A DNA stretch of 64,000 bases. It comes from Acidobacteriota bacterium (GTDB taxonomy: Bacteria; Acidobacteriota; UBA890; WLXD01). The DNA is taken from assembly GCA_963666215.2 (NCBI GenBank), contig CAXWPL010000004.1, positions 512,001-576,000 of the forward strand, given 5' to 3'. Positions 11,747 to 64,000 of this stretch are shown here, one piece after another; position 1 is the first letter of the stretch, and every line of letters starts with the position of its first letter. The notes below the pieces were generated by a model that searched no databases, had not been told where the DNA came from, and saw nothing but the letters and a program-made list of their open reading frames with translations. A program made the position numbers and the translations under genes.

Positions 11747-11989
11747 ATCGACGGGACGACCCCTCCCGGGGACACACGGCGAGAACCCCGCCAGCCTCTG
11801 GCGCAGGGTCCGCTCGACGCCCGCCACACGCACTCTCGACGTTCCGAGAAAGCGCGCGCAATCTCGCGAGACTTGAAACTTACCCCCCTGTTTGCGCGAA
11901 GGTAGAGGTAAGAGCGTGGTCCCGTTCCCCTGAACGGGTCGACGGGCTCCTTCCCTTTGGGGGGGCGCGGGCGACCAGGAGGTGCGGAC

Positions 11990-16490: not shown

Positions 16491-16647
16491 CTCGGTCTCC
16501 TCGTCGTCCGCGCCAGGCTGAATCGTCTTGAAATTGTGTTGGATTGTCTCGAGTGGGGGACATGGTAGCCGACCGTCCGACGCCCGCTTTCCGGTGGAGA
16601 TTCAACCCCGCCGGTATCGACGACCACCCGGGGCACGCGACAATACG

Positions 16648-17330
16648 CCCCCACAGCGCCATCGACGGTCGCGAGCGCGGTGAGATCGTCAACCTCACCG
16701 ATCGGCGCGCCCGGGCTTCGCGCTGCGCGCAGCGCGACCTCCTCGATCGTGGCCCCGACCCGATCGTCAACACGATCGACCAGCTGGAACAGGCGTCGGC
16801 ACCGCCCTCGCCGGCACCGCGGCAACCAATGCTTCCCCACCTCGTCATGCCGGCGCATCACGACGTGCGCCGGCGCGACGTGCGACTGCGCCGGCTACAC
16901 GGCGCTCTTGCTGCGACAGCCGACCGCGGACCGAAGGACTTTCCCGAGCTGCTGCTGACCCCGGGAGTTGGAACCCGCACCGTGGCCGCGCTGGCCCTCG
17001 CGAGCGAGGTGATCTACGGCGCCCCTACCGCTTCTCCGATCCGGCGCGCTACTCGCTGGCGCACGGCGGCGGCAAGGACGGGCATCCGTATCCGGTGCCG
17101 TTGAAGGTCTACGACCGAACGATCTCGACCCTGCGCAGCGCCGTCCAAGCGGCCAAGCTCGGCAACAACGACAAGCTCGCAGCCATTCGGCGGCTCGACG
17201 AGCAGGCCCGAGCGCTCGAGTCGGTGGCAGCCGGCCCGTCGCTGTCGCGCTTCATCGCGGACTGAGCGAATGGCCTCATGGAAATACGGCGGCCGCACGG
17301 TGTTCGGCGACGCTCCTCCTGGCGGCGCGG
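16648..17330 (+). pseudogene. DUF763 family protein, 5'-truncated, two frameshifts (~17025, ~17263)
   Basis: PHSAIDG..IVNLTD, PKDFPELLLTPGVG.RTV; next frame RFSDPARYSLAHGG..KDGHPYPVPLKVYD; third frame YGGRTVFG. Confidence 0.75.
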
Positions 17331-20354: not shown

Positions 20355-20675
20355 CTATGTCTGCTCCACCACACTCGACATCGCGCCGGAGAAGGCCAGC
20401 CATTCGTCGCGGGCAGAGGCCAACTCGCGTTCGCCGGCCGGCGTCAGGGTGTACACGCGACGACGACGGCCACCGACCCGTGCCCAGTTGCTGGCGAGCG
20501 AACCGGCGACCTCCAAACGTCGGAGGGCCGGGTAGATGGTGCCTTCGGCGAGATCGAAGGTCCCGCCGCTACGGCGCCTCAATTCCTGGATGATGGCGTA
20601 GCCGTGACCCGGCACGCCTTCGAGAGACGCGAGCAACAGCAGATTGACATGGCCCTTCAGCTTTTCTTTGTTCAT
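20355..20675 (-). CDS. PadR-family transcriptional regulator
   Basis: [48 protein letters not shown]. Confidence 0.92.
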
Positions 20676-20688
20676 GCATCGCAACCCT

Positions 20689-20709
20689 ATACATCGTTTT
20701 ACAATGTAT
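20689..20709. promoter_or_regulatory. Putative PadR operator palindrome
   Basis: ATACATCGTTTTACAATGTAT, 13 bp upstream of the padR ATG. Confidence 0.65.
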
Positions 20710-20739
20710 CAAGTCATCGCCAACCTTTTGTCCGCCTGG

Positions 20740-20915
20740 CCTCGCGACGTGGTGTGCCACGCCAGTGCGTGGGATATAGGCGACGGTGAGGACTACCGCA
20801 TCAAGATGTGCATCGATCGCAACGCCTACGATTTCAGCACCATCCACCACGAGCTCGGCCACAACTTCTACCAGCGGGCCTACAAGGATCAGCCCTACCT
20901 GCTGCAGGGCGGCGT
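20740..20915 (+). pseudogene. Internal fragment of an M2 (ACE-like) metallopeptidase
   Basis: [16 protein letters not shown]...[19 protein letters not shown] (HEXXH); no start or end. Confidence 0.8.
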
Positions 20916-21037
20916 GGTAGAGACCCGCAAAGCGGGGCGCTACCAGAGAGGTGGGGGCTGGGGCCAAATGCCGAGCCGCAAGGCTCGGGATCTTGGCGGC
21001 CCTGGTAGGGGCTGTGCCGTGCAGAGCCCCGCAATCG

Positions 21038-21475
21038 CTACTTGGCGGCGAGCTCGCTGATCGGCCAGTAGAGCGAGATGCCTTGGCGCTGAAGTCGCCG
21101 GGCGAACGTTTTGTCGAAGGTCGCCACAGAGTCGTGAGCGCCGGTCTCGGCAACGGCGGCCAAGCATGCGTCGGTGAAGTCGGAGTAAATCCGCGGCCAG
21201 CCATCCAGAACGAGCGACCAGCGCAAATGGTCTTCAGGCAATAGACCACGCCAGGCCAACAAGCGGCGAAGCCTGTCGGCGATCTCGGCGCTCGGTCGGC
21301 GGTAGAGGGCACGCAATACGTAGACGAGCTCCGCGACGACGCACTGGTGCAGAACAAGCGTGCATCCCGAACGGGCGCTGGTGTCGAATAGATCCTTGGC
21401 GAGCCGCTGCTGCCGCAAGTCTCGCTTGATGAGGAACGAAACCAGCACGTTCGTATCGACAACGATCGACGTCAT
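21038..21475 (-). CDS. vapC: PIN-domain (VapC-type) toxin
   Basis: [21 protein letters not shown] acidic residues; ATGA overlap with the antitoxin. Confidence 0.85.
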
Positions 21476-41257: not shown

Positions 41258-44003
41258 GTGGCGACGTTCCCGCGCGGAAGGGAGGGGGCTGCAGAATTGC
41301 ACGAAGAGCCAACGCTTCGACCAGGGAAGTTAGGCCCGGGCACCCGGATCGGCAGCTACGAGATCGTCTCGGCTCTCGGGGCCGGCGGCATGGGCGAGGT
41401 ATGGCGAGCCCGCGATACCGAGCTCCAGCGCGACGTCGCGATCAAGGTGGTTCCTCACGAGCTGGCCGACGACGAAGCCGTTCTGCGCCGCTTCCGGCGC
41501 GAGGCGCGCATGTTGGCGGCGGTCAACCATCCCCATATCGCGACGATACACGCCGTCGAGGAGGCCGACGCCGTGCGCTTCATCGTCATGGAGCTGCTCG
41601 AGGGAGAGACGCTCCAGGCTCGACTCGAGCGCGGCGCGCTGCCGATGGACGAAGCGCTCGAGATCGCCAGGCAGACGGCCGAGGCACTCGAGGCGGCACA
41701 CGACCGCGGACTCGTACACCGCGATCTCAAGCCGGCGAACGTGTTCCTCACCACCGGTAGTCGGGTGAAGGTGCTCGATTTCGGCATCGCGAAGGACGTC
41801 GCAGCGAAGCGTGGCAAGGACGAGGTGACCAGAGCTTCCACCAGCCTGACGATGAGCGGCACGTTGCTCGGCACCGCTCCGTACATGAGCCCCGAGCAGA
41901 CACGCGGCATGTCGATCGACGTGCGCACCGACATCTGGGCCTTCGGGTGCGTCCTGTACGAGATGCTGACCGGCCGCAGGGCGTTCGCTGGCAGGCACGT
42001 ATCGGAAACGATGGCGGCCATCCTCAAAGAGGAACCCGACTGGAGCTTGTTGCCGCCGGAAACCCCCGCGCTCGTCACGTCGCTCCTTCGTCGATGTCTT
42101 CGCAAGGACCCCGATCGGCGCCTGCATCACATCGCGGACGCGCGTATCGAGATCGACGAAGCGACAGCACCCGACCCCCGGGAACCGGACGTTCTGGCAG
42201 CCGCGGCCAGCGAAGATCGCGCCGCTCCACTCTGGAGGAATGTGGCTCTTGCGCTGGGTGCGGTTGTGCTCGTTCTTGGCGGCTACCTGCTGGGCAGAAC
42301 CCGGACGCCGGCGGCCCCGGAGGTCTGGAACACGCGACAGATAACCCGTGGTCCGGCGATTGAAAGTCAGGCGAGCCTCGACCCGGCCGGCCAGTTCATC
42401 GTCTATACGAGCAACGAGCACGGCAACCTCGACATCTACTGGCAGCTCGTCGAGGGGGAGAACGTACAAAACCTGACCGACGATTCGGAAGCCGACGACC
42501 TCCAGCCAGCGATCTCGCCTGATGGATCAACCATTGCCTTCCGTTCGGAGCGCAGCGGAGGCGGCCTCTAGCGGAGGCGGCCTCTATCTGATGGGCGCGT
42601 TTGGCGAGAACCCGCACCGGCTGACACCTCGAGGCTACGATCCGGCTTGGACGCCCGACGGCGAATGGGTCGTTTTTGCCGACCGCGGGATCTTTCACCC
42701 CGGAAACCTGACGCTCAGCGGCCTCGCGATGGTCGAGGTCGACGACCCGACCCACATCGTGGAGATTCACGACAGCGGCTACCTACCCGTCGTCTCGCCC
42801 AACGGGCACCGGATCGCCTACTTCGACAGCACCGAGGGCGGTCAGCGAGACATCTACACGATACCGACGCGTGGGGGCGAGCCGGTGAAGGTGACCGACG
42901 ACGTCGCGCTCGACTGGGCGCCAGCGTGGGCACCCGATGGGCGGCGACTCTACTACTCGAGCGACCGGGGCGGAGTGGAGAACATCTGGTATGTCGAGAT
43001 CGACGAACGCTCCGGCGAGCCACGGGGCGAGCCGCAGCGGGCCGGGGCCAGCGAGGTCGACCAGGGGTGGCCATCGCTCTCTCGAAACGGTCAGTTGATC
43101 GCCTACACGTCGCGCCGACAGCAGATGAACCTGCATCGTGTGGCCTTCGACCCGCAGTCGCGCACCGTAGTCGGTGAGCCGCAGGCGATCACGCGCGGCG
43201 CAAATACGGTGATTCGATTCGACCTTTCTCCCGACGGCGAGTGGTTGGTGTACGGCAACCGCACCGGCCAACTCGACATTTTCCTCGTACGCGCCGACGG
43301 AAGCGGCGAGATCCAGCGACTGACCGATGACGAGCATCGCGACACGGGTCCCAGGTTCTCGCCGGACGGGCGCCAGATCGCTCTGGACTCCGACCGCGGA
43401 GGCTCGGCCGAGCTCTGGCTCATGGATGTCGAGTCTCGAAACCTGACCCAGCTCACCGCAGCCGGCGGCAGGTTTGTCCAGGACCCGGTGTTCTCGCCCG
43501 ACGGCTCCAAGCTGATGTACCGCGTTGGCGAGGGCGACGCCTACAACAACTACCTGATGTCACTGGATCAGGCATGGGACGCCCAGACGCCCGTGAAGCT
43601 CCCGACTCCGGAAAACGATTCCTTCCAACCGAGCTACTGGTCGCCGAACGGTTCGTGGGTAGTCGGGTGGACCTACGCTTTCTTGGATCCTCGCCTTTTG
43701 CTGTTCGACGTGGAGCGGCAAACCTACGAAGATCTCAGCGACTTTCGTGGCCATGCCCATCCCGCCTGGCTGGGCGACGATTACCTCGTCTTCGTCTCCA
43801 CAGCGGAGACCCGCGGCGTGACGACACGACGAGACGAGATGCTCGTGATGGATCGGCGCACCGGCACCACCGAGCGGCTTCTTGGTGATGGCGTGGACTG
43901 GACCTTCGAAGAGCAGATGGTCGCGTCTCCTGATGGTCGGTGGCTTTACTACATCCGTGCAGCCCTGGACTCGGATATCTGGCTGTTGACCCGGGCACAC
44001 TGA
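41258..44003 (+). pseudogene. Hanks-type Ser/Thr kinase-TM-TolB/PD40 propeller protein, split by a 16-bp duplication
   Basis: LGAGGMGEV, VAIK, HRDLKPAN, DFG, YMSPE; SPDG repeats; AGCGGAGGCGGCCTCT at 42554-42569 and 42570-42585 creates TAG. Confidence 0.88.
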
Positions 44004-44117
44004 GGCTGCACGTCGGCGTACCGCCTGGATGGCGGAACCACGACCGGCAACGTCGTACCGACGGCCCCTCTCTTGCTCGCCCAGTACGGCCTCTTCGTGC
44101 CTCACGGATTTCAAAGG

Positions 44118-44191
44118 CGCGCCCGGCAGGATTCGAACCTGCGACCTGCGGATTAGAAGTCCGCTACTCTATCCAGCTGAGCTACGGGCGC
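44118..44191 (-). tRNA. tRNA-Arg (anticodon TCT)
   Basis: GCGCCCG/CGGGCGC acceptor stem, GCTC D-stem, GCGGA-CTTCTAA-TCCGC anticodon arm, GGTTCGAATCC; followed by CCT, not CCA. Confidence 0.95.
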
Positions 44192-44206: not shown

Positions 44207-45382
44207 CTATTTATCAGAGGCTTGGGAAGAATCGGCGAAGTCCAAGACGCGGCCTGATTCGGCTGACCTTCCCTTTCCCTTCCCCGTCAGCTTCCCGAGC
44301 GCGCTCCTCAGATCGGCCTCGTTTGCGACGGCATACCTGTCGAACACGGAGCGCGTCGTGTGACCGCTGATCTTCATTGCGACCGTGTCGGGCACCCCGG
44401 CCCTGACCATGTTGCGGATCGCCGTCCGGCGAAAGTCATGCAGCAGCTTGCCCGGGCAGCCCGCAGCTTTGCAAGCCGACTTCCACGCCTTGCGGAAGCC
44501 CTTGATCTCGGCCCCGTCGCGGTGAAAGACATGAGGGCAGAGCACGCCCTCGGCGGCCAGGCGCCGGTGCTCCTCCCATTGCCGCTCGATGACGTCGACG
44601 AGCTCGGGCAATAGATCGTAGGGCAGGTTGCGACCCTCTTTGTTCTTGGTGGTGCCAGGCTCGAGGCGGATCGTCCGGGACCGACGATCTACCTGTCCCC
44701 AGGTCAGCGGAAGGACCTCCGACGGAATCCTCCATCCCGTGAAATACGCAAAGGTGATGATGGACTGTAGCGGCGCCGGCAGATGCTCCTGCACGGCCTC
44801 GAATTCCTCCCGCTCGAAGAAGCCGGTGCGGACATTGTCCTCTTTCAACATCGGGATGTGCGGCACGTGCAGGAGTGTGCCGGCCTGTAGGGCGAGCGTG
44901 AAGGCTCTCTTGAGCGCAGCGAGCTCACGGTTGATCGTTGCTGCTGCGGCGCCGGGCTTCTCGGTTCCGTCTTCGAGCCTGATCGGTGCTTGGCGGCTGG
45001 CGACGTACCTACGAACGTCCGCGGTCGCAATGGACGCCATCCGTCGACCGCCGAAGAACGGTTTCAGGTGGAGCCGAATCCGGGTTTCGACGTCACCGAG
45101 CGACCGCTTGCCGTTGACCCGGTAGTCGGTGATGACGTCGGCCGCGGCTTCGTCGAATCGAAGCCGACCGACCTTTGCGGAGACGGGAACGCCCTCCGCA
45201 ACCTTGCCCTCCCGGATCTTCAACAGACGTTGAGCTTCGCCCTTTCTCGTGGTGTGGGAGCTCTCCTCGTGGCGGCGGCCGTCGCGGTAATAACGTAGCC
45301 ACCAGATGCTCGACGTTCGCCGTACCTTCTTGCCAGTCTCCGAGTCGGTGACATAGTAGTACGGTCTGCGGACTTCGCCCAT
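44207..45382 (-). CDS. int: Tyrosine recombinase / phage integrase
   Basis: TINRELAAL, TGWR (R), TTKN (K), HDFRR (HxxR), SGH, FDRY (Y); ends 15 bp from the tRNA 5' end. Confidence 0.95.
   Translation of the reverse strand: MGEVRRPYYYVTDSETGKKVRRTSSIWWLRYYRDGRRHEESSHTTRKGEAQRLLKIREGKVAEGVPVSAKVGRLRFDEAAADVITDYRVNGKRSLGDVETRIRLHLKPFFGGRRMASIATADVRRYVASRQAPIRLEDGTEKPGAAAATINRELAALKRAFTLALQAGTLLHVPHIPMLKEDNVRTGFFEREEFEAVQEHLPAPLQSIITFAYFTGWRIPSEVLPLTWGQVDRRSRTIRLEPGTTKNKEGRNLPYDLLPELVDVIERQWEEHRRLAAEGVLCPHVFHRDGAEIKGFRKAWKSACKAAGCPGKLLHDFRRTAIRNMVRAGVPDTVAMKISGHTTRSVFDRYAVANEADLRSALGKLTGKGKGRSAESGRVLDFADSSQASDK
44212..44224 (+). promoter_or_regulatory. IHF consensus site next to the putative att
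   Basis: TATCAGAGGCTTG matches WATCARNNNNTTR. Confidence 0.5.
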
Positions 45383-50764: not shown

Positions 50765-51133
50765 ATGACGAAGGCGCATGCAACGCTGTCGGCCAGCATA
50801 GGCTCACCGGCGAAGAAGTCGCCGCACGTGTTGAAAGCGGCGTTGAAGGGCATTCTGTCGCGACCCACGCGCTGGCACCTGCGCCGAGTCGGCAAGTTCC
50901 CGGAGCCGATCAAGGCGACTGCCGAGCGCTCCCTGCACTGGGCCACAGACATCAACGCCTGGATGGATGACCCGCGGGAGTGGGGCGCGGAAACACGGGC
51001 GGGGGACTTCGTGAGTCGCCCTCGTCGCGGCGGATGGTTGGTAACTTGCCCGTGCTGCGGGGCGAACGAGGGGGCGGAGTTCGCGGACATTTGGGCAGGC
51101 GCAGAACTGAGCTCTTCTGCGAGGACGCAATGA
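50765..51133 (+). CDS. alpA: AlpA-like DNA-binding regulator with a Cys-containing tail
   Basis: LSRPTRWHLRRVGKFPEPIK...WATDINAWM resembles AlpA LSRSTIYR..GKFPKPIK..W..SEI..W. Confidence 0.65.
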   Translation: MTKAHATLSASIGSPAKKSPHVLKAALKGILSRPTRWHLRRVGKFPEPIKATAERSLHWATDINAWMDDPREWGAETRAGDFVSRPRRGGWLVTCPCCGANEGAEFADIWAGAELSSSARTQ

Positions 51134-53508
51134 GCTTCACGTGCGTCGACGTCGCTCGGGCCGCGGGATTGGAGAAGGGCCGTCGCGTCGGCGCGGAGAG
51201 ATTGTTCCGGTGTTGCCAGCATGACGACACTCGGCCCTCTCTGTCGATCAATGAGCGCAAGAACCGGTGGATTTGCGGGCCGTGTGAGGCTGGTGGCGGG
51301 GCCTGGAAACTGGCGGCGTTCCTTGGTGGCTTCGATCCGGACGACAAGCAGGCCGTACTCTCGTGGCTCCGCGACCACGATCTGCTTGATGGCGAGCGGG
51401 TCTCGTCGAAGTTCGTTGCCACTCACGACTACACGGACCACGCCGGTGAGCTGCTGTTCCAGGTCGTGCGCCTGCGGCCCAAGTCCTTCCGACAACGGCG
51501 TCCGGACGGCAACGGCGGGTGGGTGTGGAACGTCGACGGTGTGCGCCGCGTGTTGTACCGGCTGCCCGAGCTTGGCACGGCCACGGTCGTGCACATCACC
51601 GAGGGAGAAAAGGACGCCGACGCACTTCACGGCATCGGTCTCACGGCCACATGTAACCCCGGGGGTGCGGGGAAGTGGCGGGACGAGTACACGGAGTCCT
51701 TCACTGCCGAGCACCAGGTCGTTGTCTTGCCGGACAACGACGACGCCGGTCGCCGGCACGCCGAGACGGTGGCCGCATCACTGCACGGTCAGGTCGCGTC
51801 GGTGAAGGTGCTCCAGCTGCCGGACCTAGCTCCCAAGGGGGATGTCACGGACTTCATCAACGCGTGCAGAGACGCGGAGGAAGCTGCCGAGCGGCTTGCC
51901 ACCATAGCGAATGGGGCGGATCAATGGGAGCCGCAGGCTGCCGACGAACCGACTGTGGAGGACCGCTGCACAACCATCGAGATCCGGCCCGACCTGACTG
52001 GCGTAACCGATGAGGCCATCGACGCGATAGCCGCGCAGCCGAGCCTCGGAGTCTACGTCCGCGGCCGCCAACTCGTGCGCGTCGCGCGGGACGGGTCTCC
52101 GCCGGAGTGCTGGCTGGAGCGATGGCCCGGGTCTCCGGTGATCGTTCCCATGGCGAGCGCACAGGTACTCGACGTCCTCGACCGAGCCGCCGCGTGGGTG
52201 AAGTGCGACGGCCGCCGCAAGGAGTATGTTGCCGCGATACCGCCATCGTGGGTCGCGCAGCAGGTGGGTGCAAGGCTGGAGTGGCCGCTGCCGTACCTGG
52301 AGGCGGTTACCGAGACGCCGACCATCCGGTCTGACGGGTCGATCCTGGAGACGCCGGGGTGGGACCAGGCGTCCCGTCTCCTATACGAGCCGATCCCGGG
52401 AGCAGCGACGTGGCCGCCGGTGCCGGAGCAACCGACTGGGGAGGACGTACGCCGTGGCATCGCGATGCTGCGGGACCCATTGGAAGACTTCCCTTTCAAA
52501 GCGGAATCGGACGGTGCGGCCGCCATCGCGGTCATTCTGACTCTGTTGGCGCGGCACCTCATTCACGGGCCGGTTCCGTTGATGGCCATTCGGGCGCCGA
52601 CGCCGGCGACCGGCAAAACGCTGTTGGCCGACGTTATCGGGATCATGGGCACAGGGCGTGTCCCGCCCGTTATGACGATGACCTTCGAGTCGGAGGAGCT
52701 GCGGAAGCGGGTTACCTCCCTTGCGGTCGAGGGTGCTGCGCTAATCCTCCTCGACAATGTGTCGGGCACCCTTGGGTCCGACACCCTAGCCGCCGCGCTG
52801 ACGGCGACCGACTGGGAGGACCGCATCCTCGGGACGAACACGGTTGTCCGCGTGCCGCTGCGCGTGGTGTGGATGGTGACCGGCAACAATCTCGGCTTTC
52901 GTCGCACGCTCGGACGGCGTGTGATCCCGATCGACCTGGACGCGGGGGTGGAGCAGCCGGAGGACCGGGTCGGATTCCGCCACGCGGACCTGAGGGGGCA
53001 CGTCCGCGAGCGCCGGCCGCACCTGGTGACCGCGGCCCTGACGATCCTGCGAGCGTTTCACCTAGCAGGTCGGCCGGCGCACGGGGGACCACGCATGGGC
53101 AGCTTCGAGGCCTGGGATGACCTGATCCGATCCGCGGTCATCTGGGCCAGTTTGGCCGACCCTGCGTCCGCGGATCCGGAGCACGGACGGGGGCGAGTAC
53201 GGTCGCAAGCGGATGACGATACGGAGACGCTGCGGCTGCTGCTGCGCGCGTTGGCCGACGCCTTTCCCCACGGCGGGGGCTTTACGGCCGCGGACGTGGT
53301 GACCCGCTCGCGCAGTGACGAGGATCTAGCCGCTGCGCTGGACGTAGCGGCTGCGCCGAGACGTGGTGGGAAGCCGACCGGCCGATCGTTGGGGTACGCG
53401 TTCCGGAATGCAGTTGACCGACCGGTCAGAGGCCTCGTGCTGCGCCGGTGGATGCAAGAGCGATCTGGGGTTGTCTGGCTGGTCGAGAGCCCGGAGGAGA
53501 CGCGGTGA
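51130..53508 (+). CDS. Primase-helicase (Zn-binding + TOPRIM + C-terminal P-loop ATPase)
   Basis: CCQHDDTRPSLSI..WICGPC; EGEKDAD, VLPDND; PTPATGKT, LILLDN, VTGNN. Confidence 0.85.
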   Translation: MSFTCVDVARAAGLEKGRRVGAERLFRCCQHDDTRPSLSINERKNRWICGPCEAGGGAWKLAAFLGGFDPDDKQAVLSWLRDHDLLDGERVSSKFVATHDYTDHAGELLFQVVRLRPKSFRQRRPDGNGGWVWNVDGVRRVLYRLPELGTATVVHITEGEKDADALHGIGLTATCNPGGAGKWRDEYTESFTAEHQVVVLPDNDDAGRRHAETVAASLHGQVASVKVLQLPDLAPKGDVTDFINACRDAEEAAERLATIANGADQWEPQAADEPTVEDRCTTIEIRPDLTGVTDEAIDAIAAQPSLGVYVRGRQLVRVARDGSPPECWLERWPGSPVIVPMASAQVLDVLDRAAAWVKCDGRRKEYVAAIPPSWVAQQVGARLEWPLPYLEAVTETPTIRSDGSILETPGWDQASRLLYEPIPGAATWPPVPEQPTGEDVRRGIAMLRDPLEDFPFKAESDGAAAIAVILTLLARHLIHGPVPLMAIRAPTPATGKTLLADVIGIMGTGRVPPVMTMTFESEELRKRVTSLAVEGAALILLDNVSGTLGSDTLAAALTATDWEDRILGTNTVVRVPLRVVWMVTGNNLGFRRTLGRRVIPIDLDAGVEQPEDRVGFRHADLRGHVRERRPHLVTAALTILRAFHLAGRPAHGGPRMGSFEAWDDLIRSAVIWASLADPASADPEHGRGRVRSQADDDTETLRLLLRALADAFPHGGGFTAADVVTRSRSDEDLAAALDVAAAPRRGGKPTGRSLGYAFRNAVDRPVRGLVLRRWMQERSGVVWLVESPEETR

Positions 53509-53882: not shown

Positions 53883-55207
53883 CAGGCTGCTGAAAAACTC
53901 CTAGCGTTCATGTAGCTTGACCCATGCAGCCCCGTGCCAACCGGAAGCATCGACGAGGTGAGCAGATGCGTGGTGAAGACGCGGGTCAAGTGGCAGCGTT
54001 CAGCTATATCTCGCCCGAGCAGAGGGTACCGAAGGACCATCCGCTGCGGCGGCTGCTGAAGATCGTCAACAACGTGCTGGAACAGATGTCGCCACTGTTC
54101 GCCGGCATGTACTCGCACACGGGGCGGCCGTCGATCCCGCCGGAGAAGCTGTTGCGGGCATTGCTGCTGCAGGTGCTGTATACGATCCGCTCCGAGCGCA
54201 TGCTGATGGAGCAGCTCGACTACAACCTGCTATTCCGCTGGTTCGTGGGCTTGAACATGGACGATGCGGTGTGGGATGCGACGGTGTTCACCAAGAACCG
54301 AGACCGGGTGCTCGGTGGTGAGGTCGCCGAAGTGTTCTTCGAGCAAGTCGTGGAGCAAGCGCGCAGGCGCGGACTGCTATCGGACGAGCACTTCACCGTT
54401 GATGGAACGCTGATCGAAGCGTGGGCATCGCACAAGAGCTACCAGCCCAAAGACCCGAGCGGGCGGCAGGATCCACCCAGTGGTGGCGGCCGGAACCCGG
54501 ACGTCGATTTCCGCAAACAGCGGCGCAAGAGCGATACACACGCCTCGAGAACCGATCCTGACGCCCGCCTGTATAGGAAGAGCAAGGGATCCGAGGCGAA
54601 GCTCTGCTACATGGGCCACCTGGTAGTCGACAACCGCCACGGGCTGCCGACCAACGCGATGGTAACGAAGGCTTCAGGCACAGCGGAACGAGATGCGGCA
54701 GTGGCGATGGCCGGCGAGATCCCCGGGACAGATCGCGTGACTATGGGTGGCGACAAGAACTACGACACCAAGGAGTGCGTCGGCAAGCTGAGAGATCGGA
54801 ACGTAACGCCGTATGTGGCGCAGAACGACACCAACAGACGCAGCGCGATCGATGGCCGCACCACGAGGCACGCCGGGTACAAGCAAAGCCAGGTCAAACG
54901 CAAGCTCGTCGAGCAGGTCTTTGGCTGGGGCAAGACAGTAGGACTGATCCGCCAGACGAAGCACCGAGGGGTCGACCGCGTCGGCTGGATGTTCGTCTTC
55001 ACCGCGGCAGCGTTCACCTTGGTGAGAATGCGCAATCTCGAGGCGCTGACGTGAAGGTAGTGGGACCCGGGAGCGCCAAACCGCCTCTCGAGGTGACGAG
55101 CGAAGGGTCGTTTGCGATCGCCCCCCTTCAACGGTGCGCGCCATGCCTACTCCACGCTGCCGCTCGGGGACCGGATCGACACTCGTGAGCCGTTTTTCAG
55201 CAGCCTG
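53883..55207 (+). mobile_element. IS5-family insertion sequence
   Basis: Perfect 16-bp IRs CAGGCTGCTGAAAAAC / GTTTTTCAGCAGCCTG; CTAG duplicated at 53879-53882 and 55208-55211. Confidence 0.95.
53966..55054 (+). CDS. IS5-family transposase
   Basis: GRPSIPPEKLLRALLLQ, SERMLMEQLDYNLLFRWFVGL, VDGTLIEAWAS, GGDKNYD, VEQVFGW. Confidence 0.95.
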   Translation: MRGEDAGQVAAFSYISPEQRVPKDHPLRRLLKIVNNVLEQMSPLFAGMYSHTGRPSIPPEKLLRALLLQVLYTIRSERMLMEQLDYNLLFRWFVGLNMDDAVWDATVFTKNRDRVLGGEVAEVFFEQVVEQARRRGLLSDEHFTVDGTLIEAWASHKSYQPKDPSGRQDPPSGGGRNPDVDFRKQRRKSDTHASRTDPDARLYRKSKGSEAKLCYMGHLVVDNRHGLPTNAMVTKASGTAERDAAVAMAGEIPGTDRVTMGGDKNYDTKECVGKLRDRNVTPYVAQNDTNRRSAIDGRTTRHAGYKQSQVKRKLVEQVFGWGKTVGLIRQTKHRGVDRVGWMFVFTAAAFTLVRMRNLEALT

Positions 55208-56202: not shown

Positions 56203-56456
56203 TGGCGGTTGGGCAGGTGGCGCGTTAGCGCCATCGTAGGGGCAGCGGCAACAACGGAATCGTAACCGTGTGCGACCAAGAACTGCACTACTAGACCCCC
56301 TATTCGGCTTTGATCATCTTGGATTCTTCCCTATGGTCGTGCCTGGCAAAAGGTAGCGACCGGGTCTTGTATCGCAACCGCACCAGCACGTGACCGTTGC
56401 TGGAGCGAGGGACGAGCTCCTCTTGGCTAGCGAGCTCAACCACAGGAGAGGCAAGC

Positions 56457-57209
56457 GTGAACGACACGGGGGGCGCGGCCCCTGGCTCCATCCATTCGTT
56501 GGTTCCCGACCCGGAGGCCATGCTCGCGCTTGAGCCCGAGGAGCTCGCCGGTGTCCTGATGGAACACCTCAACTCTCTCCCTGCCTCCGAACAGAGAAGC
56601 CTAAACCGATACAACTTCAGTCTCCGGCACACAGTTCGAGACTATCCAGAGGACGCGCAGGACGAGCTGAGTCTGGCCCTTATGGAGGCGTGGGTCTGGC
56701 TTGAACGTGAGGGGCTCCTGGTGCCGAAGCCTGGGTCCGCGGGTGAGTCGGTAGTCATCTCGCGACGCGGTCAACGGCTGCGGACACGCGATCAGGTGCG
56801 CTCTTACCGTTGTGCGAACCTGCTTCCGCGTGGCCAGCTTCATCCGAGAATCGCGCAGAAGGTGTGGGCGTTGTTCCTCAGGGGCGACTACGATACGGCG
56901 GTGTTTCAGGCATTCAAAGAGGTCGAAGTGCGGGTCCGGGAGGCCGCGGAATGTGCAGACACGGACATCGGAGTCGCTTTGATGCGGAAGGCGTTCGTGA
57001 CAGGCGGTGCTCTGGCGGACGCTGAGGCGCCGAAGGCGGAGCAGGATGCGCTCGCTCATCTTTTTGCCGGCGCCATCGGGTCCTACAAGAACCCCCATAG
57101 CCACCGTAGCGTGACCATCGAACGAGCCGAGGCCGTGGAGATGATAGTGCTAGCCAGTCACCTACTCGGCATTGTGGACAAGCGTTCAGCCGACGATTCG
57201 GATGCTTAG
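56457..57209 (+). CDS. TIGR02391 / Ymh-family (HEPN-like) protein
   Basis: LHPRI..LFLRGDYDTAVFQAFKEVEVRVRE..GVALMRKAF..LFAGAIGSYKNPHSHR. Confidence 0.85.
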   Translation: MNDTGGAAPGSIHSLVPDPEAMLALEPEELAGVLMEHLNSLPASEQRSLNRYNFSLRHTVRDYPEDAQDELSLALMEAWVWLEREGLLVPKPGSAGESVVISRRGQRLRTRDQVRSYRCANLLPRGQLHPRIAQKVWALFLRGDYDTAVFQAFKEVEVRVREAAECADTDIGVALMRKAFVTGGALADAEAPKAEQDALAHLFAGAIGSYKNPHSHRSVTIERAEAVEMIVLASHLLGIVDKRSADDSDA

Positions 57210-57317: not shown

Positions 57318-59447
57318 ATGAACCACAGCGAGATCACGAGCTTCATCTGGGGCGTGGCGGACCTGATCCGTGACACCTTCAAGCGAGGCAAGTACCAGGA
57401 CGTGATCCTGCCGCTCACCGTGCTGCGGCGCCTCGACTGCGTGCTGGCCCCCACCAAAGGGCAGGTGCTGGCGGTCCAGGCCAAGTACCGGGGCAGGATC
57501 GAGAACCTCGAGCCGCAGCTTCGACGCGCCTCCGGCTTCGCGTTCTACAACACCTCCCGCTACGACTTCGATAAGCTCCTCGCCGACGCGTCCCACATCG
57601 CTCAGAACCTGCGTAACTACATCGCAGGGTTCAGCTCCAACATGCGTGAGGTGCTGGAGAAGTTCGACTTCGACAACACCATCGCCAAGCTCGACGAGGC
57701 GGGACTCCTGTTCCAGGTCGTGCAGCGGTTCGGCGATCCGAAGGTGAATCTGCACCCGGACCTGGTCGACAACTTCACGATGGGCACGATCTTCGAGGAG
57801 CTCATCCGGAAGTTCAACGAGGCGCTGAACGAAAACCCAGGGGAGCACTTCACTCCCCGCGACGTTGTCCATCTCATGGTGGACCTGTTGCTGGCTGGCG
57901 ACGAGCAACGGCTGCGCACCAAAGGGGTCGTGCTGAGCGTCTACGACCCGTGCTGTGGGTCGGGCGGCATGCTCACCATCGCCAAGGAGCACATCAACGT
58001 CGGAGAAAGGCGCGAGGGCGAACTCTGCGGCAGCGCCGTGAACCCTGATGCCGACATTCACCTGTTCGGCCAGGAGGTGAACCCGGAGACCTTCGGCATC
58101 TGCAAGTCCGACCTGTTCATGAAGTCGGAAGACGGCCGCGACGCGGACAACGTCCTGTTCGGCAGCACGCTCTCCAACGACCGGCACGCCAGCACAACGT
58201 TCGACTACATGATCGCCAATCCACCCTACGGCAAGGACTGGAAGCGCGACCAGGACGCGGTGCGAGCCGAGCACGACCGGGGAGACGCCGGCCGCTTCGG
58301 TGCGGGGTTGCCGCGGATAAGCGATGGCCAGCTGCTGTTCCTGCTGCACATGCTCGCGCACTCCAAGGAGCAAGCTCAGGGCGGCTCGCGGGTCGCGATC
58401 ATCATGAACGGCTCGCCGCTCTTCACCGGCGATGCGGGCAGCGGTGAGAGCGAGATCCGCCGCTGGATCCTCGAGAACGATCTGCTGGAAGCGCTGATCG
58501 CACTGCCCGAGCAGCTGTTCTACAACACGGGCATCGCGACCTACGTCTGGGTGCTCACGAACCGGAAACGGCCTGAGCGACGCGGCAGAGTCCAGATCAT
58601 CGACGCCACCTCGTTCTGGGTCCCACTGCGCAAGAGTCTGGGTGCGAAGCGTCGCGAGGTTCCGGTCGAGCGAAAGGAGGAGGTCCTGGGGCTGCTGGCG
58701 GAGTTCGAGGATGGCGCGACCCGCAAGGTCTCCCAGGACGGCGAAGAGCACGAGGTTGTCGTCAGCCGCGTCTATCCGACCACGCACTTCGGCTTCCGCA
58801 AGATCACGGTGGAGCGTCCGCTGCGGCTCGACTTCCAGGCCAGCCCCGAACGGATCGCACGGCTCGAAGAGGAGCGCGCTTTCGTGAGCCTGGCGGTGTC
58901 ACGCAAGAAGGGCGAAGCGAAAGCGAAGGACGAGGAGGCGGGCCGGAAGCAGCAGGCCGAGATCCGGGCCCTGCTGAAGAATCTATCGGCCAAGCTGTTC
59001 CTGGAGCGTGCGGTCTTCGAGGACGAGTTTTCCCAGGCGGCCCAAGAAGCGAAGCTCAAGCTAGCTGCTCCCATCAAGAAGGCAATTTTCTCCGCGTTGT
59101 CTGAGCGCAACGACGAGGCAGAGATCTGCCGGGACCGGGAGGGTCGCCCTGAGCCTGATCCCCAGCTTCGCGACACGGAGAGCGTGCCCCTCCTGGAGGA
59201 TGTTGAGTCGTTCTTCGAGCGGGAGGTGAAGCCGCACGTTCCCGACGCCTGGATCGACACGAAACGCCGGGATGCGCGGGATGGACAGGTCGGGCTCGTG
59301 GGCTACGAGATCAACTTCAACCGGTACTTCTACGAGTACCGACCACCCCGCCCGCTGGAGGAGGTACAAGCCGACATCCGCGCCATCGAGAGAGAAATCG
59401 TCGAGGCTCTGGGTACCTTGACGAAGTCATCGGGGACAACGATGTGA
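57318..59447 (+). CDS. hsdM: Type I restriction-modification methyltransferase subunit
   Basis: ILPLTVLRRLDC, GEHFTPR, YDPCCGSGGML, ANPPY, FYNTGI, VGYEINFNRYFY. Confidence 0.95.
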   Translation: MNHSEITSFIWGVADLIRDTFKRGKYQDVILPLTVLRRLDCVLAPTKGQVLAVQAKYRGRIENLEPQLRRASGFAFYNTSRYDFDKLLADASHIAQNLRNYIAGFSSNMREVLEKFDFDNTIAKLDEAGLLFQVVQRFGDPKVNLHPDLVDNFTMGTIFEELIRKFNEALNENPGEHFTPRDVVHLMVDLLLAGDEQRLRTKGVVLSVYDPCCGSGGMLTIAKEHINVGERREGELCGSAVNPDADIHLFGQEVNPETFGICKSDLFMKSEDGRDADNVLFGSTLSNDRHASTTFDYMIANPPYGKDWKRDQDAVRAEHDRGDAGRFGAGLPRISDGQLLFLLHMLAHSKEQAQGGSRVAIIMNGSPLFTGDAGSGESEIRRWILENDLLEALIALPEQLFYNTGIATYVWVLTNRKRPERRGRVQIIDATSFWVPLRKSLGAKRREVPVERKEEVLGLLAEFEDGATRKVSQDGEEHEVVVSRVYPTTHFGFRKITVERPLRLDFQASPERIARLEEERAFVSLAVSRKKGEAKAKDEEAGRKQQAEIRALLKNLSAKLFLERAVFEDEFSQAAQEAKLKLAAPIKKAIFSALSERNDEAEICRDREGRPEPDPQLRDTESVPLLEDVESFFEREVKPHVPDAWIDTKRRDARDGQVGLVGYEINFNRYFYEYRPPRPLEEVQADIRAIEREIVEALGTLTKSSGTTM

Positions 59448-60700
59448 TCAGCGAGTCTCCAGCAACACCTCGCTACCCGAAGTACCGCAGCGCGGGCATC
59501 GAGTGGTTAGAAGAAATCCCCAGCCACTGGGATGTGAGCCCTTTGTTCTTGGTCTCTAAGGAGAACGACGCCCGTAACCACCAACAGGTCGAGAGCAATG
59601 TACTTTCCCTGTCGTATGGTCGAATCGTGCGCCGAGATGTGAGCCTCCATCACGGTCTCCTACCGGAGTCTTTCGAGACGTACCAGGTATTGCAGCCTGG
59701 CGATATTGTCCTGCGCTTGACGGATCTTCAGAACGACAAGCGGAGCCTGCGCGTTGGGCTTGTTCCCGAGCCGGGGATCATCACGTCCGCATACGTTGGG
59801 TTAAGTCTCCGCGATTCACTGGAGTCGCGGTTCGCCTACTATCTGCTGCACTCCTACGACGTGACGAAGGTCTTCTACCGGCTGGGCGGAGGTGTCCGGC
59901 AAACGATGAAGTTCGCGGATCTAAGACGCCTCCCTATCGTTCTTCCGCCAGCCCAGGAACAGCACGCCATCGCCGATTTCCTGGACCGCGAGACGGCGAA
60001 GATCGATGGGTTGGTGGCGAGCAAGGAGCGGCTGATCGAGCTACTTCAGGAGAAACGCACCGCCCTGATCACCTCTGCCGTCACCCGAGGCCTGGACCCG
60101 AACGTCCCCATGAAGGATTCCGGCATCGAGTGGCTGGGGGAGATCCCGGCGCATTGGGAGGTAATCCGCACAAGATTCCTCTGCGACATGACCACAGGGG
60201 ACAAGGACACGCAGGACGCGATGGAGGAAGGGGAGTATCCCTTTTTTGTCAGATCCGACAACGTCGAACGTCTACCCACCTATACATTCGACGGTGAAGG
60301 GGTCCTTACGTCGGGTGACGGCGCTGGCGTGGGCAAGATATTCCATCACTACATTGGCAAGTTTGATTTCCATCAACGAGTCTACTTGTTCTGTCATTTT
60401 CGGCGCGTTGTAGGGCGCTTCTTCTACTATTTCGTCAAAGCCAATCTCTGCAAAGTCGTTCTGGCCCTCTCGGCTAAATCCACCGTTGACTCGTTAAGGC
60501 GACCAATGCTCCAGGACTTCCCGGTCGCGGTCGGGCCCGAGCAAGCAGAGATCGTCGCGTTCCTCGATAGAGAGACGGAGAACATCGACGCCCTCACCGC
60601 CAAAGCCCACCAAGCCATCGCCCTGCTCAAAGAATTCCGCACCGCGCTGATCTCCGCAGCGGTCACCGGCAAGATCGACGTCCGGGGACAAGCGGCATGA
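59444..60700 (+). CDS. hsdS: Type I restriction-modification specificity subunit
   Basis: Two (S/A)GIEWL.EIP.HW repeats, EQ..I..FLDRET..ID, ALISAAVTGKIDV; TRDs have lower GC. Confidence 0.95.
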   Translation: MISESPATPRYPKYRSAGIEWLEEIPSHWDVSPLFLVSKENDARNHQQVESNVLSLSYGRIVRRDVSLHHGLLPESFETYQVLQPGDIVLRLTDLQNDKRSLRVGLVPEPGIITSAYVGLSLRDSLESRFAYYLLHSYDVTKVFYRLGGGVRQTMKFADLRRLPIVLPPAQEQHAIADFLDRETAKIDGLVASKERLIELLQEKRTALITSAVTRGLDPNVPMKDSGIEWLGEIPAHWEVIRTRFLCDMTTGDKDTQDAMEEGEYPFFVRSDNVERLPTYTFDGEGVLTSGDGAGVGKIFHHYIGKFDFHQRVYLFCHFRRVVGRFFYYFVKANLCKVVLALSAKSTVDSLRRPMLQDFPVAVGPEQAEIVAFLDRETENIDALTAKAHQAIALLKEFRTALISAAVTGKIDVRGQAA

Positions 60701-63700
60701 GCCCGGAGGTCTCCGAGCAGGCCTTCGAGGAGGCGATCGAATGCGCGCTGCTGCGAGACGGACTCGACGCGCGCCCGCACGATGCGACGGCAGTGAGCGA
60801 GTCGCCGCCCGAACACGACGATGAGCCGGTGCCGGGCGGCTACCGCAAGCGTCGGCCGGAGGACTACGACCGCGGCCTCTGCCTGATTCCGACCGACGTC
60901 GTCGACTTCCTCCTGGCCACCCAGCCCAAGGAGTGGGACAAGCTCAAGCAGCACCACGGCGCTCACGTGAAGGTGCGCTTCCTGAGCCGGCTGTCGCGCG
61001 AGATCGGCCGGCGGGGGGCACTCGATGTACTCCGCAATGGCGTCAAGGACTCAGGCTGCAGGTTCCGGCTCGCTTACTTCCGGCCCGCGAGCGGGCTCAA
61101 CGAACAGCTGCAGCGCCTTCACGCGGCCAACCTCTTTTCCGTATCCCGCCAGCTTCGCTTCAGCGAGCAGAGCGAGGAGAGCCTCGATCTCGCGCTGTTT
61201 TTGAACGGCATCCCCATCTTCACGGCCGAGCTCAAGAACCCGCTCAACGGCCAGGACGTGCAGGATGCCATCCGGCAGTATCGGCACGACCGTGACCCGC
61301 GGGAGCCGCTCCTGTCCTACGGGCGCTGCCTTGCCCACTTCGCCGTGGACCCGGAGCTGGTGTTCGTGACGACGCAGCTGTCCGGGCCCGGGACTCGTTT
61401 TCTACCCTTCAACCAGGGGCGCTTCGGCGGCGCGGGGAACCCACCGGTCCCGCCCACCCGTCCGGGCTTTCCGACCGACTACCTGTGGGAGCAGATCTGG
61501 GCCCGGGACAGTGTCCTGGACCTGCTCCGTCAGTTCATTCACGAGGTGCAGGAGGAGGACGATGCCGGACGCAAGACCGGCAAGCGCTTCCTGATCTTCC
61601 CGCGCTACCAGCAGCTGGACTGCGTGCGCCGCCTTGTGCGCCATGCGCGAGAGCACGGCACCGGCGAGCGCTATCTGATCCAGCACTCTGCGGGCAGCGG
61701 CAAGAGCTTCACGATCGCCTGGCTCGCCCACCAGCTCTCGGTGCTGCATGACCGAGAGGACCGGCGTGTGTTCGACTCGGTCATCGTGGTGACCGATCGG
61801 CGGGTGCTCGATCGCCAGTTGCAGCGCACCATCCGGCAGTTCGAGCAGACCCTCGGCGTGGTGGAAAACATCGACCAGACCTCCCGCCAGCTGCGCGAGG
61901 CTCTCGAGGCTGGCCGGACGATCATCGTCACCACGCTGCAGAAGTTTCCGGTGATCGCCGAGCAGATCGGCCAGCTCCCCGGCCAGCGCTTCGGAGTCAT
62001 CGTGGACGAGGCACATTCGTCGCAGTCTGGCGAAAGCACCAAGAGCCTCAAGGCGGTGCTCAGAGCAGGGAGCTCTGGAGCAGGCCGAACAAGAGGAAGT
62101 GGGTGCGCAGACCCCCGAAGAGGAGATCGACAACCGGGTCCTCGATGAGATCCAAAGCCGCGGACGGCAGCCGAACCTCTCGACGTTCGCCTTCACGGCG
62201 ACCCCGAAGCCCAAGACGCTGGAGCTGTTCGGCCACAAGCGGCCGGACGGGAAGTTCGAGCCCTTCCACCTTTACAGCATGCGCCAGGCGATCCAGGAGA
62301 GGTTCATCCTCGATGTGCTCGCCAACTACACCACCTACAAGGCCTACTGGCGCCTGCTGAAGAAGATCGAGCAGGATCCGCGGTACGACAAGAGCCAAGC
62401 GGAGTACCTGCTCAAGTCCTTCGTTGAGCTGCACCCGCATGCCATCCGCGACAAGATCGCCATCTGCGTGGAGCATTTCGCCGCGCAGGTCGCACGTGAG
62501 ATCCGCGGGCGGGCCAAGGCGATGATCGTGACGCGCTCGCGCCTCCATGCAGTGCGCACCAAGCTCGCTCTGGATCAGTATCTGGCCGACAAGGGCCATC
62601 CGTACAAGGCGCTCGTCGCCTTTTCCGGAACGGTGAAGGACCGTGGCGCCTCCTACACGGAATCGGGCATGAACTCCGCCGGGCAGGAGCGAGTGATCGG
62701 CGAGCGGCAGACGGCAGCCGAGTTTGACACGCCTCAGTGCCGCTTCCTGGTGGTCGCCAACAAGTTCCAGACCGGATTCGATCAGCCACTGCTGCACACG
62801 ATGTACGTGGACAAGAAGCTCGGTGGCGTGAACGCGGTCCAGACGCTGTCCCGCCTGAACCGCACCCACCCCGGCAAGAAGGGTGCGATGGTGCTCGACT
62901 TCGCCAACGAGGCCGAGGAGATCCGGAAAGCCTTCGAGCCGTACTACGAGACCACCCTGCTTTCCGAGGAGACCGACCCCAACCTGCTGTACGAGGTCCA
63001 GGGCAGACTATTCAACTACGGTGTGTTCGCGGCCGACGACGTCGATGCCTTCGGGCGGGTGTACTTCGACCCCAAGGGCACCCAGGACCGGCTGTACGCG
63101 GCACTGGAGCCGGCGCGACAGCGGTTTAACTGAGCTTGGTCCCGAGGAAGGAAGCGACTTCCGCGGCCAGCTCACCGACTACGCACGCCTGTACGCGTTC
63201 CTGTCCCAGGTGCTGACATTCGCCGACCCCGACCTCGAGAAGCTCTACGTCTTTGCCCGGCACCTCAGGCGCCTGCTGCCGGCCAGCCGTGAGGAGTTAC
63301 CTCTCGAGGTGCAGCAGAACATCGACATGGAGTCCTTCCGCATCCAGCAGACGAGCCAGGGACCGATCGCGCTGGAGCGGCAGGCCTGGCCGCTCGACCC
63401 TGCCGGGAGCAAGCCGCACAGTGGGGCCGGCGCGCAGGAGTTGGAGGCGCTCTCGCGCATCATCGAGGCGCTCAACGAGCGTTTCGGCCTGGACCTCGGC
63501 CCCGAGCACCGCGTCGCGCTCGAGCGCATCCGGTTGGCCCTGGACGAGGACGACGGGCTGGAGGCCAGCGCCCGGGTGAACACGCGCGAGAACGTGCGGC
63601 TGACCTTCGACCCCAAGGTTGAGGACAAGTTCCAGGAGTTCGTCGAGACCAACTTCGAGCTGTACAAGCGCATCACCGACGATGCGGACTTCGGCGGGGC

Positions 63701-64000
63701 GCTCAAGAACTTCCTGTTTGACGACTACATCCAGCGGCACCGACGAGCAGAGGAACTGCTCAAGCTCCAGGAGTCCAAGACGCTCGAGTTCAAGTCGAGC
63801 CTGCGCTGGAACCTGAAACAAGACCGCAAGGACGACAAGCACGTCACCCACGCGGCGCTCAAGAGTATCGCCGCGTTCCTCAACACCGAGGGCGGCGACC
63901 TGCTGATCGGCGTGGACGACGACCGCAAGGTTGTCGGCATCGAGCATGACCGCCTCGACAGCGACGATAAGTTCATGCGGCACTTGGCCCAGGTCGTGCG
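60697..64000 (+). pseudogene. hsdR: Type I restriction endonuclease subunit R, two +1 frameshifts (~62070, ~63128), C-terminal Schlafen/AlbA_2 domain; runs off window
   Basis: ELKN, QHSAGSGKS, DEAHSSQ, FTATPK, KFQTGFDQP, QTLSRLNR; frame from 63129 reads ..ESKTLEFKSSLRW..SIAAFLNTEGGDLLIGVDDD. Confidence 0.88.

Follow-up and report, generated by a model that had tools for sequence, protein, structure and literature searches.

A type I restriction-modification (R-M) operon, hsdM-hsdS-hsdR, fills the last 6.7 kb of the 64,000-nucleotide stretch of Acidobacteriota DNA that we analyzed (assembly GCA_963666215.2, contig CAXWPL010000004.1, positions 512,001 to 576,000; G000:C4:512001-576000 in our numbering, here called the window), and the hsdR gene runs on into a Schlafen/AlbA_2 nuclease domain. 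Intact relatives showed a complete HsdR and a Schlafen domain with a conserved active site in one predicted polypeptide. The copy here carries three one-base insertions, the last of them just past the window end. The features are listed in Table 1.

The hsdR gene and its Schlafen domain

The hsdR gene starts at 60697 and was read in three successive reading frames (60697-62148, 62099-63133, and about 63129 to the window end); the third open reading frame (ORF), 62883..63998 on the + strand, is open at the 3′ end of the window. At either end, hsdS shares 4 bases with its neighbour (the stop of hsdM, the start of hsdR). A single uninterrupted hsdR frame was absent, with three +1 shifts relative to the homologues P0004 and P0001 and the related loci L003 and L004. 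In a tblastn search with the intact homologue P0004 (1178 amino acids, aa), its residues 1-473 were found in frame 3 (93.9% identity), 458-810 in frame 1 (96.0%), 812-1142 in frame 2 (96.1%), and 1141-1178 in frame 3. The features of an HsdR were all present: a PD-(D/E)xK domain, superfamily 2 (SF2) translocase motifs, and adjoining hsdM and hsdS genes. HSDR_N (PF04313) matched 60697-62148 with an E value of 1.3e-14, and the first piece carries the motifs SLDLALFLNGIPIFTAELK (nuclease), GSGKS, and DEAH. The same genome has no second hsdR-Schlafen copy.

An earlier sequence-only reading of the window held that HsdR continues in frame into a Schlafen domain. This was true of the last hsdR piece, but not upstream, where hsdR occupies the two other frames. 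The + strand frame that it described, from 63129 to the window end, was open, and its letters were exact: the frame reads ...LLKLQ-ESKTLEFKSSLRWNLKQDRKDDKHVTHAALKSIAAFLNTEGGDLLIGVDDDRKVVGIEHD..., with ESK at 63771-63779. The Pfam search that it called for, done on translated 63129-63998, gave PF04326 (SLFN_AlbA_2) with an E value of 2.8e-14 and 54.1 bits, against a curated cut-off of 25.3, a match far beyond chance that bears out the AlbA_2/Schlafen signature. It covered residues 215-283 and profile positions 1-60 of 118, since the window end cuts the domain.

The downstream DNA was followed in L002 (G000:C4:568000-587000), where a position equals the window position minus 55999. The rest of the domain is encoded there, to about 64235 in window numbering (L002 8236), but the frame itself stops 142 bases past the window (64142; L002 8143) and the conserved domain end (...GDLYVRSGPGTVRLGKEDADKYVATRFGAT) resumes in the next frame. 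The Ex4ExK motif, ESKTLEFK (63771-63794), is followed by AAFLNTEGGDLLIGVDDD; the Schlafen box is present as IAAFLNTEGG, SAFAN-like and then glycines, and the third acidic residue lies in GVDDD.

A profile of the domain matched the solved structures of SLFN11 (7fex, E 6e-7), SLFN13 (5yd0, 5e-6), and CbCash (9ylu, 7e-4), as well as SLFN12, SLFN5, and SLFN14. In the alignments with SLFN13 (5yd0) and SLFN11 (7fex), ESKTLEFK lay over ESQSIEFK/ESASIEFK, and GVxDD over GVDD. We modelled the Schlafen domain of P0001, which is 99% identical to L002:7130-8140, with AlphaFold2 (AF2; pLDDT 90.4, pTM 0.87). A Foldseek search with this model gave 30 matches at E<=0.001; the top ones were the bacterial AlbA_2 structures 3lmm and 2kyy, and the next were the SAMD9 tRNA nuclease (tRNase), SLFN13, SLFN14, SLFN11, SLFN5, and SLFN12, with a probability of 1.0 for the SAMD9 tRNase, SLFN13, SLFN14, and SLFN11. 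The model thus showed a Schlafen fold for the HsdR-borne domain, which is a single lobe, the counterpart of the catalytic C-lobe of the mammalian nuclease. A homodimer prediction with two copies of the domain scored 0.00, against a mark of 0.42, and has no bearing on pairing either way.

Distribution and conservation of the fusion

The HsdR-Schlafen fusion is widespread and common in environmental bacteria. A protein search with the last 337 residues, in which only longer proteins were taken, scored 8000 proteins, 2992 of them at E<=0.001. PF04326 was present in all of the best 120 listed proteins, and 98 of these 120 were 1164-1186 aa long (counted from the table); their source names were "DEAD/DEAH box helicase" or "putative DNA binding domain-containing protein". 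With one genome per species, there were at least 590 matching stretches, at least 580 of them encoding a relative. Against 1.84 billion representatives, the domain profile had 12,762 protein matches at E<=0.001, of which 2,142 reached E<=1e-30.

The best 79 loci of the one-genome-per-species matches (63-96% identity) were surveyed. They span Acidobacteriota, Gemmatimonadota, Planctomycetota, Pseudomonadota, Actinomycetota, Chloroflexota, Nitrospirota, Spirochaetota, Latescibacterota, and others. Intact fused homologues, on which the sequence-only reading depended, were abundant, with their Ex4ExK and D residues conserved: 55 of the 79 loci had a single intact HsdR-Schlafen ORF, the typical member being about 1178 aa long. 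Another 16 were partial, at contig ends or with N-terminally incomplete ORFs, and 4 were split into two or more ORFs. The remaining 4 ended before or inside the Schlafen domain (L074 and L076 with a clean stop at about 1015, L060 at about 980, and L045 inside the domain). hsdM was found in 58 of the loci and hsdS in 63.

The DNA-nuclease triad D164/E178/K180, GSGK, and DEAH were kept in all 59 full-length sequences, and the SF2 motifs GSGK, DEAH, FTATP, and QTLSRxNR in 58-59 of them. In the Schlafen domain, E20, E25, and K27 (Ex4ExK) and D69 were each present in 57 of 58 HsdR-borne domains; F55, N57, G60, and G61 were invariant across the 58. Along with a dN/dS of about 0.2 between the window copy and L003 or L004, this pattern of conservation indicates that both catalytic centres are under selection.

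Possible gain and loss of the domain, and its other partners

Comparison with other HsdR proteins indicates that the Schlafen domain is an add-on to HsdR. The HsdR homologues found on PLSDB plasmids had at most 46% identity and ended at about 1006-1039; the two inspected were 1006 and 1012 aa long as annotated. In a FastTree phylogeny of residues 1-1015 (62 rows), whose rooting is tentative because both outgroups are long branches, three changes of the "no Schlafen" label were needed, a pattern for which a single gain at the clade's base, followed by two losses, could account. L074 and L076 nest beside Schlafen-bearing rows with 99% local support, and L045 is a separate case. From the orthologues without the domain, L074 and L076, it follows that HsdR does not need it.

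The same Schlafen subtype was found with other partners among 18 proteins picked from the best 150 and annotated with Pfam. The partners were an SNF2 helicase, a STAND NTPase, TPR, S1, a weak PLD-like match, and S24 peptidases, and in 8 of the 18 (384-816 aa overall) the rest of the protein was unannotated. A rare HsdR-Schlafen-S24 variant has a LexA-like Peptidase_S24 after the Schlafen domain; it is represented by P0173 (1329 aa; source organism name Acanthopleuribacter pedis) and the fragment P0131 (396 aa), both with an AAAG stretch ahead of a GRSMEP segment. S24 tails also occur on HsdR proteins of another subfamily, which carry PF11867, and on PF09369-containing DEAD-box helicases about 2000 aa long (among P0271-P0285). 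This is a hint, and no more, that signals of the DNA-damage type can control such C-terminal modules.

The three frame breaks

Reading against P0004 and P0001, and alignment to L003 and L004, placed one extra base at each of three sites (Table 1). The third lies inside the Schlafen domain. In place of the last ~38 residues of the domain, among them the invariant R149 in the (F/Y)VRxGP strand, the frame encodes 9 unrelated residues before it stops. With three such insertions, the last removing the conserved end of the Schlafen domain, the copy is not expected to work as written. It is, with about equal probability, a recent pseudogene or misassembled.

We give an even chance to the explanation that the insertions are consensus errors of the assembly and that the organism holds an intact, working hsdR-Schlafen gene. 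Contigs of four public runs were placed on L002:5900-8300. At site 1 (L002 6073-6075), all crossing contigs were without the extra base (26.8 of 26.8 depth units in X7, 18.4 of 18.4 in X8), and the same was found at site 2 (L002 7125-7132; X7 20.3/20.3, X8 6.5/6.5, X11 39.3/39.3, X1 6.8/6.8); at these two sites the contigs include near-identical pieces, with 2-3 other letters per 144-169 bases. At site 3, some contigs were without the extra base and many others ended there, their loose ends reading the in-frame version. These runs come from related strains (best word share 0.55), however, none of them demonstrably the window's own, so that the odds stay about even.

All three insertions fall at codons that vary among relatives, and dN/dS was 0.19-0.20 when the window copy was compared with L003 and L004, which argues that the copy has not decayed for long. 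Two other window genes are apparently split, a kinase/PD40 gene (41258-44003) and a MacB-type permease (3838-5941). The rest of the genome speaks against assembly errors. Five 1333-base insertion sequence (IS) copies showed zero indel differences; about 18.8 kb of control genes were uninterrupted, namely gyrA (846-aa frame), secA (890), two dnaE-like genes (1229, 1264), and two uvrA genes (992, 1035); and neither hsdM and hsdS next to it nor the GmrSD-Schlafen gene is broken. With three breaks in 3.5 kb, hsdR is therefore far above the assembly background. These controls were used because rpoB and rpoC had no match in the assembly (completeness 91.74%).

Some further genes were seen in pieces. 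The Ser/Thr kinase with PD40 repeats lies in two overlapping same-strand ORFs (41258-42571, 42522-44003), as does the MacB/FtsX-type permease (3838-4227, 4070-5941), each possibly with a frame break. Small gene fragments in the window match Peptidase_M2 (20644-21060), DUF763 (16544-17104), and AAA_2 (11957-13003). Contig C5 (~1567911-1570038, 1583204-1584331) holds a third uvrA-like copy over two frames and, near the contig end, a secA fragment (385-aa frame).

Proposed function of the fusion

The account that we prefer, tentatively and at somewhat less than an even chance, is that the Schlafen domain is a second, RNA-directed effector: a tRNA-cutting abortive-infection arm that would be licensed when the restriction enzyme engages foreign DNA. 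An M2S1R2 enzyme would engage unmodified DNA and then translocate, stall, or cut. HsdR with M2S would act as a sensor of unmodified DNA, whose engagement would license tRNA cutting, perhaps through the pairing of two single-lobe Schlafen domains, as in other prokaryotic Schlafens. The stop in translation would arrest the infected cell where DNA cleavage alone fails to stop the phage.

This account draws on characterized prokaryotic Schlafen proteins of other architectures, which were reported to cut tRNA and cause abortive infection (PMC13056530, PMC13462974, bioRxiv 10.64898/2026.05.29.728809). Their reported sensors are an Ig-like domain (RorSlfn5), an Argonaute with its target DNA (RzAgo), and cyclic tetraadenylate (cA4) recognition (CbCash; PMC13462974). 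The Schlafen of RzAgo was described as cutting tRNA only after recognition of the DNA target, with two single lobes that pair and rebuild a two-lobe nuclease (bioRxiv 10.64898/2026.05.29.728809); single-lobe domains must, by these reports, pair to form an active cleft. The tRNase of SLFN11 was reported to be activated by the binding of single-stranded DNA to its helicase domain (PMC13056530). A more specific version is doubtful: translocation, stalling, or collision on unmodified DNA might pair the Schlafens and start tRNA cleavage as a built-in abortive switch, to which the S24 domain of the rare variant (P0173) might add a damage-signal layer.

Several points weigh against the preferred account. 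The mechanism for HsdR-Schlafen proteins, including the RNase activity, its target, and its trigger, is drawn by analogy, and the evidence here does not separate triggering by DNA engagement from triggering by anti-restriction. Natural orthologues without the Schlafen domain exist (L074, L076), one family member has its motif residues replaced, and some of the fold matches bind nucleic acid rather than cut it (the SAMD9 DNA-binding domain 7ksp and SLFN5 entries). The window copy, broken three times, is probably not functional as assembled.

The sequence-only reading had proposed another trigger, a guard like PrrC: the Schlafen tRNase would be silent in a working restriction complex and released by a phage anti-restriction protein (Ocr/ArdA/Stp-like). 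The placement of the domain would suit this, as it comes directly after the C-terminal helical region of HsdR. In the type I enzymes that have been studied, this region is in contact with the methylase core, to which DNA mimics bind. PrrC itself offers a precedent: it is described as latent in its complex with EcoprrI, a type Ic enzyme, until a T4 inhibitor of EcoprrI activates it (PMC1484252). However, the Schlafen domain is not homologous to PrrC, and Pfam and PADLOC found neither the ABC-ATPase N-domain, the regulatory module of PrrC, nor a PrrC-type nuclease domain on any hsdR piece or on P0004, so the protein does not belong to the PrrC family. Nor was any feature that would sense anti-restriction found, and nothing that we found points to firing upon inhibition of restriction. 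As far as their published descriptions go, the prokaryotic Schlafen systems with a known trigger all fire when a fused sensor detects the invader, not when a partner is inhibited. We consider the guard unlikely; by analogy, activation by DNA engagement would fit the known Schlafen systems at least as well. The sequence-only reading as a whole was thus partly supported, and the observation on which it was built was confirmed.

Least probable, and in our view quite improbable, is a non-catalytic module that merely binds DNA or RNA or aids assembly of the complex: the binding folds named above and the long-standing annotation of the family as "putative DNA binding domain" (source name of P0120) would agree with it, but a pure binding role is hard to reconcile with a nuclease motif whose acidic and lysine residues are present in 57 of 58 sequences from many phyla, and the persistence of orthologues without the domain argues that it is not needed for assembly.

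The island and the neighbouring genes

A tRNA-Arg(TCT) gene directly precedes a tyrosine integrase, which places the R-M system in a tRNA-integrated island; the pair is likely its left border. The same island carries a DnaB-like helicase gene, the IS5-type element, and the Hypoth_Ymh gene and, beyond the window end, the GmrSD_N-Schlafen gene, PDC-S18, the DruE-like fragment, and an IS3 transposase. The 842-aa protein encoded between the DnaB-like helicase and the IS element may be a primase-like island replication gene. Further diverged or partial copies of the IS5-type element were seen on contig C5. Just upstream of hsdM is a Hypoth_Ymh gene, whose product had weak PADLOC matches to the HEPN-type model Aga_HEPN and to PD-Lambda-3_B. 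It was considered as a conserved partner and rejected, being found in just 1 of the 79 related loci (L003).

Table 1. Positions of the operon, its frame breaks, and neighbouring features (window numbering unless marked L002).
Feature	Position	Strand	Basis and remarks
tRNA-Arg(TCT)	44116-44191
Tyrosine integrase	44207-45382
842-aa protein	50980-53508	+	PADLOC RTasDnaG-like E 3e-19 (residues 185-299); no Pfam match at E<=1e-5
IS5-type transposase (DUF772 + DDE_Tnp_1)	53924-55054		five 1333-base copies on C4, 99.9-100% identical
Hypoth_Ymh gene	56397-57209	+	PF09509 E 8e-26; precedes hsdM
hsdM, type I methyltransferase, 709 aa, intact	57318..59447	+	Pfam N6_Mtase E 9.4e-54, HsdM_N E 3.7e-25; PADLOC MTase_I E 2.8e-267
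hsdS, specificity subunit, 418 aa, intact	59444..60700	+	Pfam Methylase_S, two stretches, E 7.7e-14
hsdR piece 1, PD-(D/E)xK nuclease and first half of SF2 motor (P0004 residues 1-~459)	60697..62073	+	Pfam HSDR_N, SWI2_SNF2, ResIII, DEAD
Frame break 1, extra T in AGC-T-CTG	62072..62075 (inserted base 62072-62074, ~62074)	+	reading vs P0004, P0001; alignment to L003, L004
hsdR piece 2, second motor half and T1R_D3-like (P0004 residues ~460-810)	62075..63130	+	Pfam T1R_D3-like E 1.8e-11
Frame break 2, extra T in AAC-T-GAG, creating the TGA that ends piece 2	63131	+	reading vs P0004, P0001; alignment to L003, L004
hsdR piece 3a, C-terminal helical region and linker (P0004 residues ~812-1024)	63132..63770	+	tblastn vs P0004
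Schlafen/AlbA_2 nuclease domain, first 76 residues	63771..64000	+	Pfam PF04326
Frame break 3, extra G in TGG-G-AAG, inside the Schlafen domain	~64117-64119, just past the window	+	reading vs P0004, P0001; alignment
GmrSD_N-Schlafen gene, 702 aa, intact	L002 8577-10685 (577-2685 bases past the window)	-	convergent to hsdR; PADLOC HEC-05 E 1e-46
PDC-S18 candidate defence gene, intact	L002 13834-14820	-	E 1.5e-100
DruE-like helicase (Druantia), 549-aa N-terminal fragment	L002 16122-17771	-	IS3-type transposase comes next

Past the window lies a second gene with a Schlafen domain. Its 702-aa product has, in order, GmrSD_N (DUF262), a His-Me-like HHIFPQ segment, and a C-terminal Schlafen/AlbA_2 domain with ESLSREFK and GVEDDG. 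The closest relative among the 79 loci, L003, has the same gene order with an intact hsdR and a 693-bp deletion in the GmrSD-Schlafen gene. Incompatibility of the two Schlafen-bearing nucleases, which this opposite breakage could have indicated, was rejected, as L008 and L051 hold both intact. Passenger genes between hsdM, hsdS, and hsdR are usual in the relatives (L005-L080) and include AbiEi/AbiEii, Fic/DOC, GmrSD, M78 peptidase, and subtilase; the window operon has none.

Features used to define prokaryotic Schlafen defence proteins (PMC13056530) were found here: a motif-bearing domain, a fusion partner, and known defence genes within 10 kb. The defence neighbours counted were the type I methyltransferase, HEC-05/GmrSD-Schlafen, PDC-S18, and the DruE-like fragment.

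What is new in the fusion

It was only in 2025-26 that an antiviral effector role was shown for prokaryotic Schlafen tRNases. Sensor-fused Schlafen tRNase effectors are known already; what is new is the HsdR fusion, as an unstudied architecture. No description of it was found in the searchable text, which excludes the bioRxiv supplements and files 13-20 and 22-26 of PMC13056530, where the fusion may be named. PMC13056530 catalogues 55 domain compositions; its supplementary file 21 has one T1R_D3-like+SLFN_AlbA_2 row (an ORF of about 516 aa) and zero rows with HsdR, ResIII, SNF2, helicase, or restriction. Supplementary Data 3 of PMC13462974, a 2026 table and the sole place in the searched text where family members turned up, lists a clear one, GIW53030.1 (1192 aa, closest system RM_Type_I), and four further proteins of 1140-1177 aa near type I R-M, all uncommented in the main text. 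That main text, so far as it was available, describes Schlafen-methyltransferase fusions and an association with R-M, and leaves an HsdR fusion unnamed. The Cash authors place more than half of the defence-linked homologues beside R-M and other nuclease systems and describe their activation as unknown (PMC13462974).

The HsdR-Schlafen protein is the simplest setting in which to ask what a restriction enzyme tells a Schlafen, with sensor, motor, DNA nuclease, and RNase in one polypeptide. It comes with built-in controls, the orthologues without the domain, and with methylation state as an on/off switch for the sensor. The window copy itself adds little, as it is broken as assembled. If the more specific version, with a switch driven by translocation, were true, DNA cutting and translation shutdown would be joined in one complex, a covalent DNA-sensing counterpart of SLFN11 and SLFN-pAgo inside classical R-M. 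Given any real coupling of the two activities, type I R-M in many soil and sediment phyla would be a DNA barrier and an abortive-infection system at once, which would change the view of leaky restriction.

Comparison with known systems

One of the closest known systems is EcoSlfn7/pSlfn7 of E. coli UC4224 (Perez Taboada et al., Nat Microbiol 2026, PMC13056530), a DUF262-Slfn fusion reported to protect against T7. Like the HsdR fusion, it joins a restriction-type nuclease to a single-lobe Schlafen domain with Ex4(E/D)xK, and its architecture is the same as that of the 702-aa gene adjoining hsdR. Its partner, however, is a type IV-like GmrSD/DUF262 enzyme rather than a type I HsdR accompanied by methylase and specificity subunits. 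Between its Schlafen domain and the HsdR-borne one, identity is only ~35%.

Two other prokaryotic systems share the principle of a fused sensor. SLFN-pAgo (RzAgo) was described as a DNA-sensing module fused to a single-lobe Schlafen tRNase, in which DNA recognition licenses abortive infection; there, however, the Schlafen domain stands at the N-terminus, linked to a GHKL ATPase responsible for tetramerization, and the sensor is an RNA-guided Argonaute. In the same preprint, a type I specificity subunit, rather than HsdR, is the reported fusion partner of a Schlafen-ATPase module. CbCash (PMC13462974), found in our profile search, is likewise a Schlafen tRNase that was reported to be activated by its fused sensor, but this is a Csx15 cA4-binding domain. 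PrrC with EcoprrI (PMC1484252) resembles the fusion in that a tRNA nuclease backs up a type I restriction enzyme when the first defence fails. PrrC, however, is reported to be a polypeptide of its own, in which an ABC-ATPase domain accompanies a nuclease domain of an unrelated type, and a phage inhibitor of the restriction enzyme activates it (PMC1484252, PMC3025547).

Human SLFN11, rat SLFN13, and the SAMD9 tRNase have the same fold and, in the C-lobe, the same catalytic motif, and SLFN11 was described as coupling a DNA-binding helicase domain to the tRNase. The mammalian Schlafens differ, by published accounts, in having a two-lobe N-terminal nuclease in one chain and an unrelated helicase, an SF1-type NTPase. 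Classical HsdR proteins (Ketogulonicigenium pYP1 WP_013368424.1, Meiothermus WP_027888418.1) share the domain order and motifs of the family at 42-46% identity, but they end at ~1006-1039, where the Schlafen domain of the family begins.

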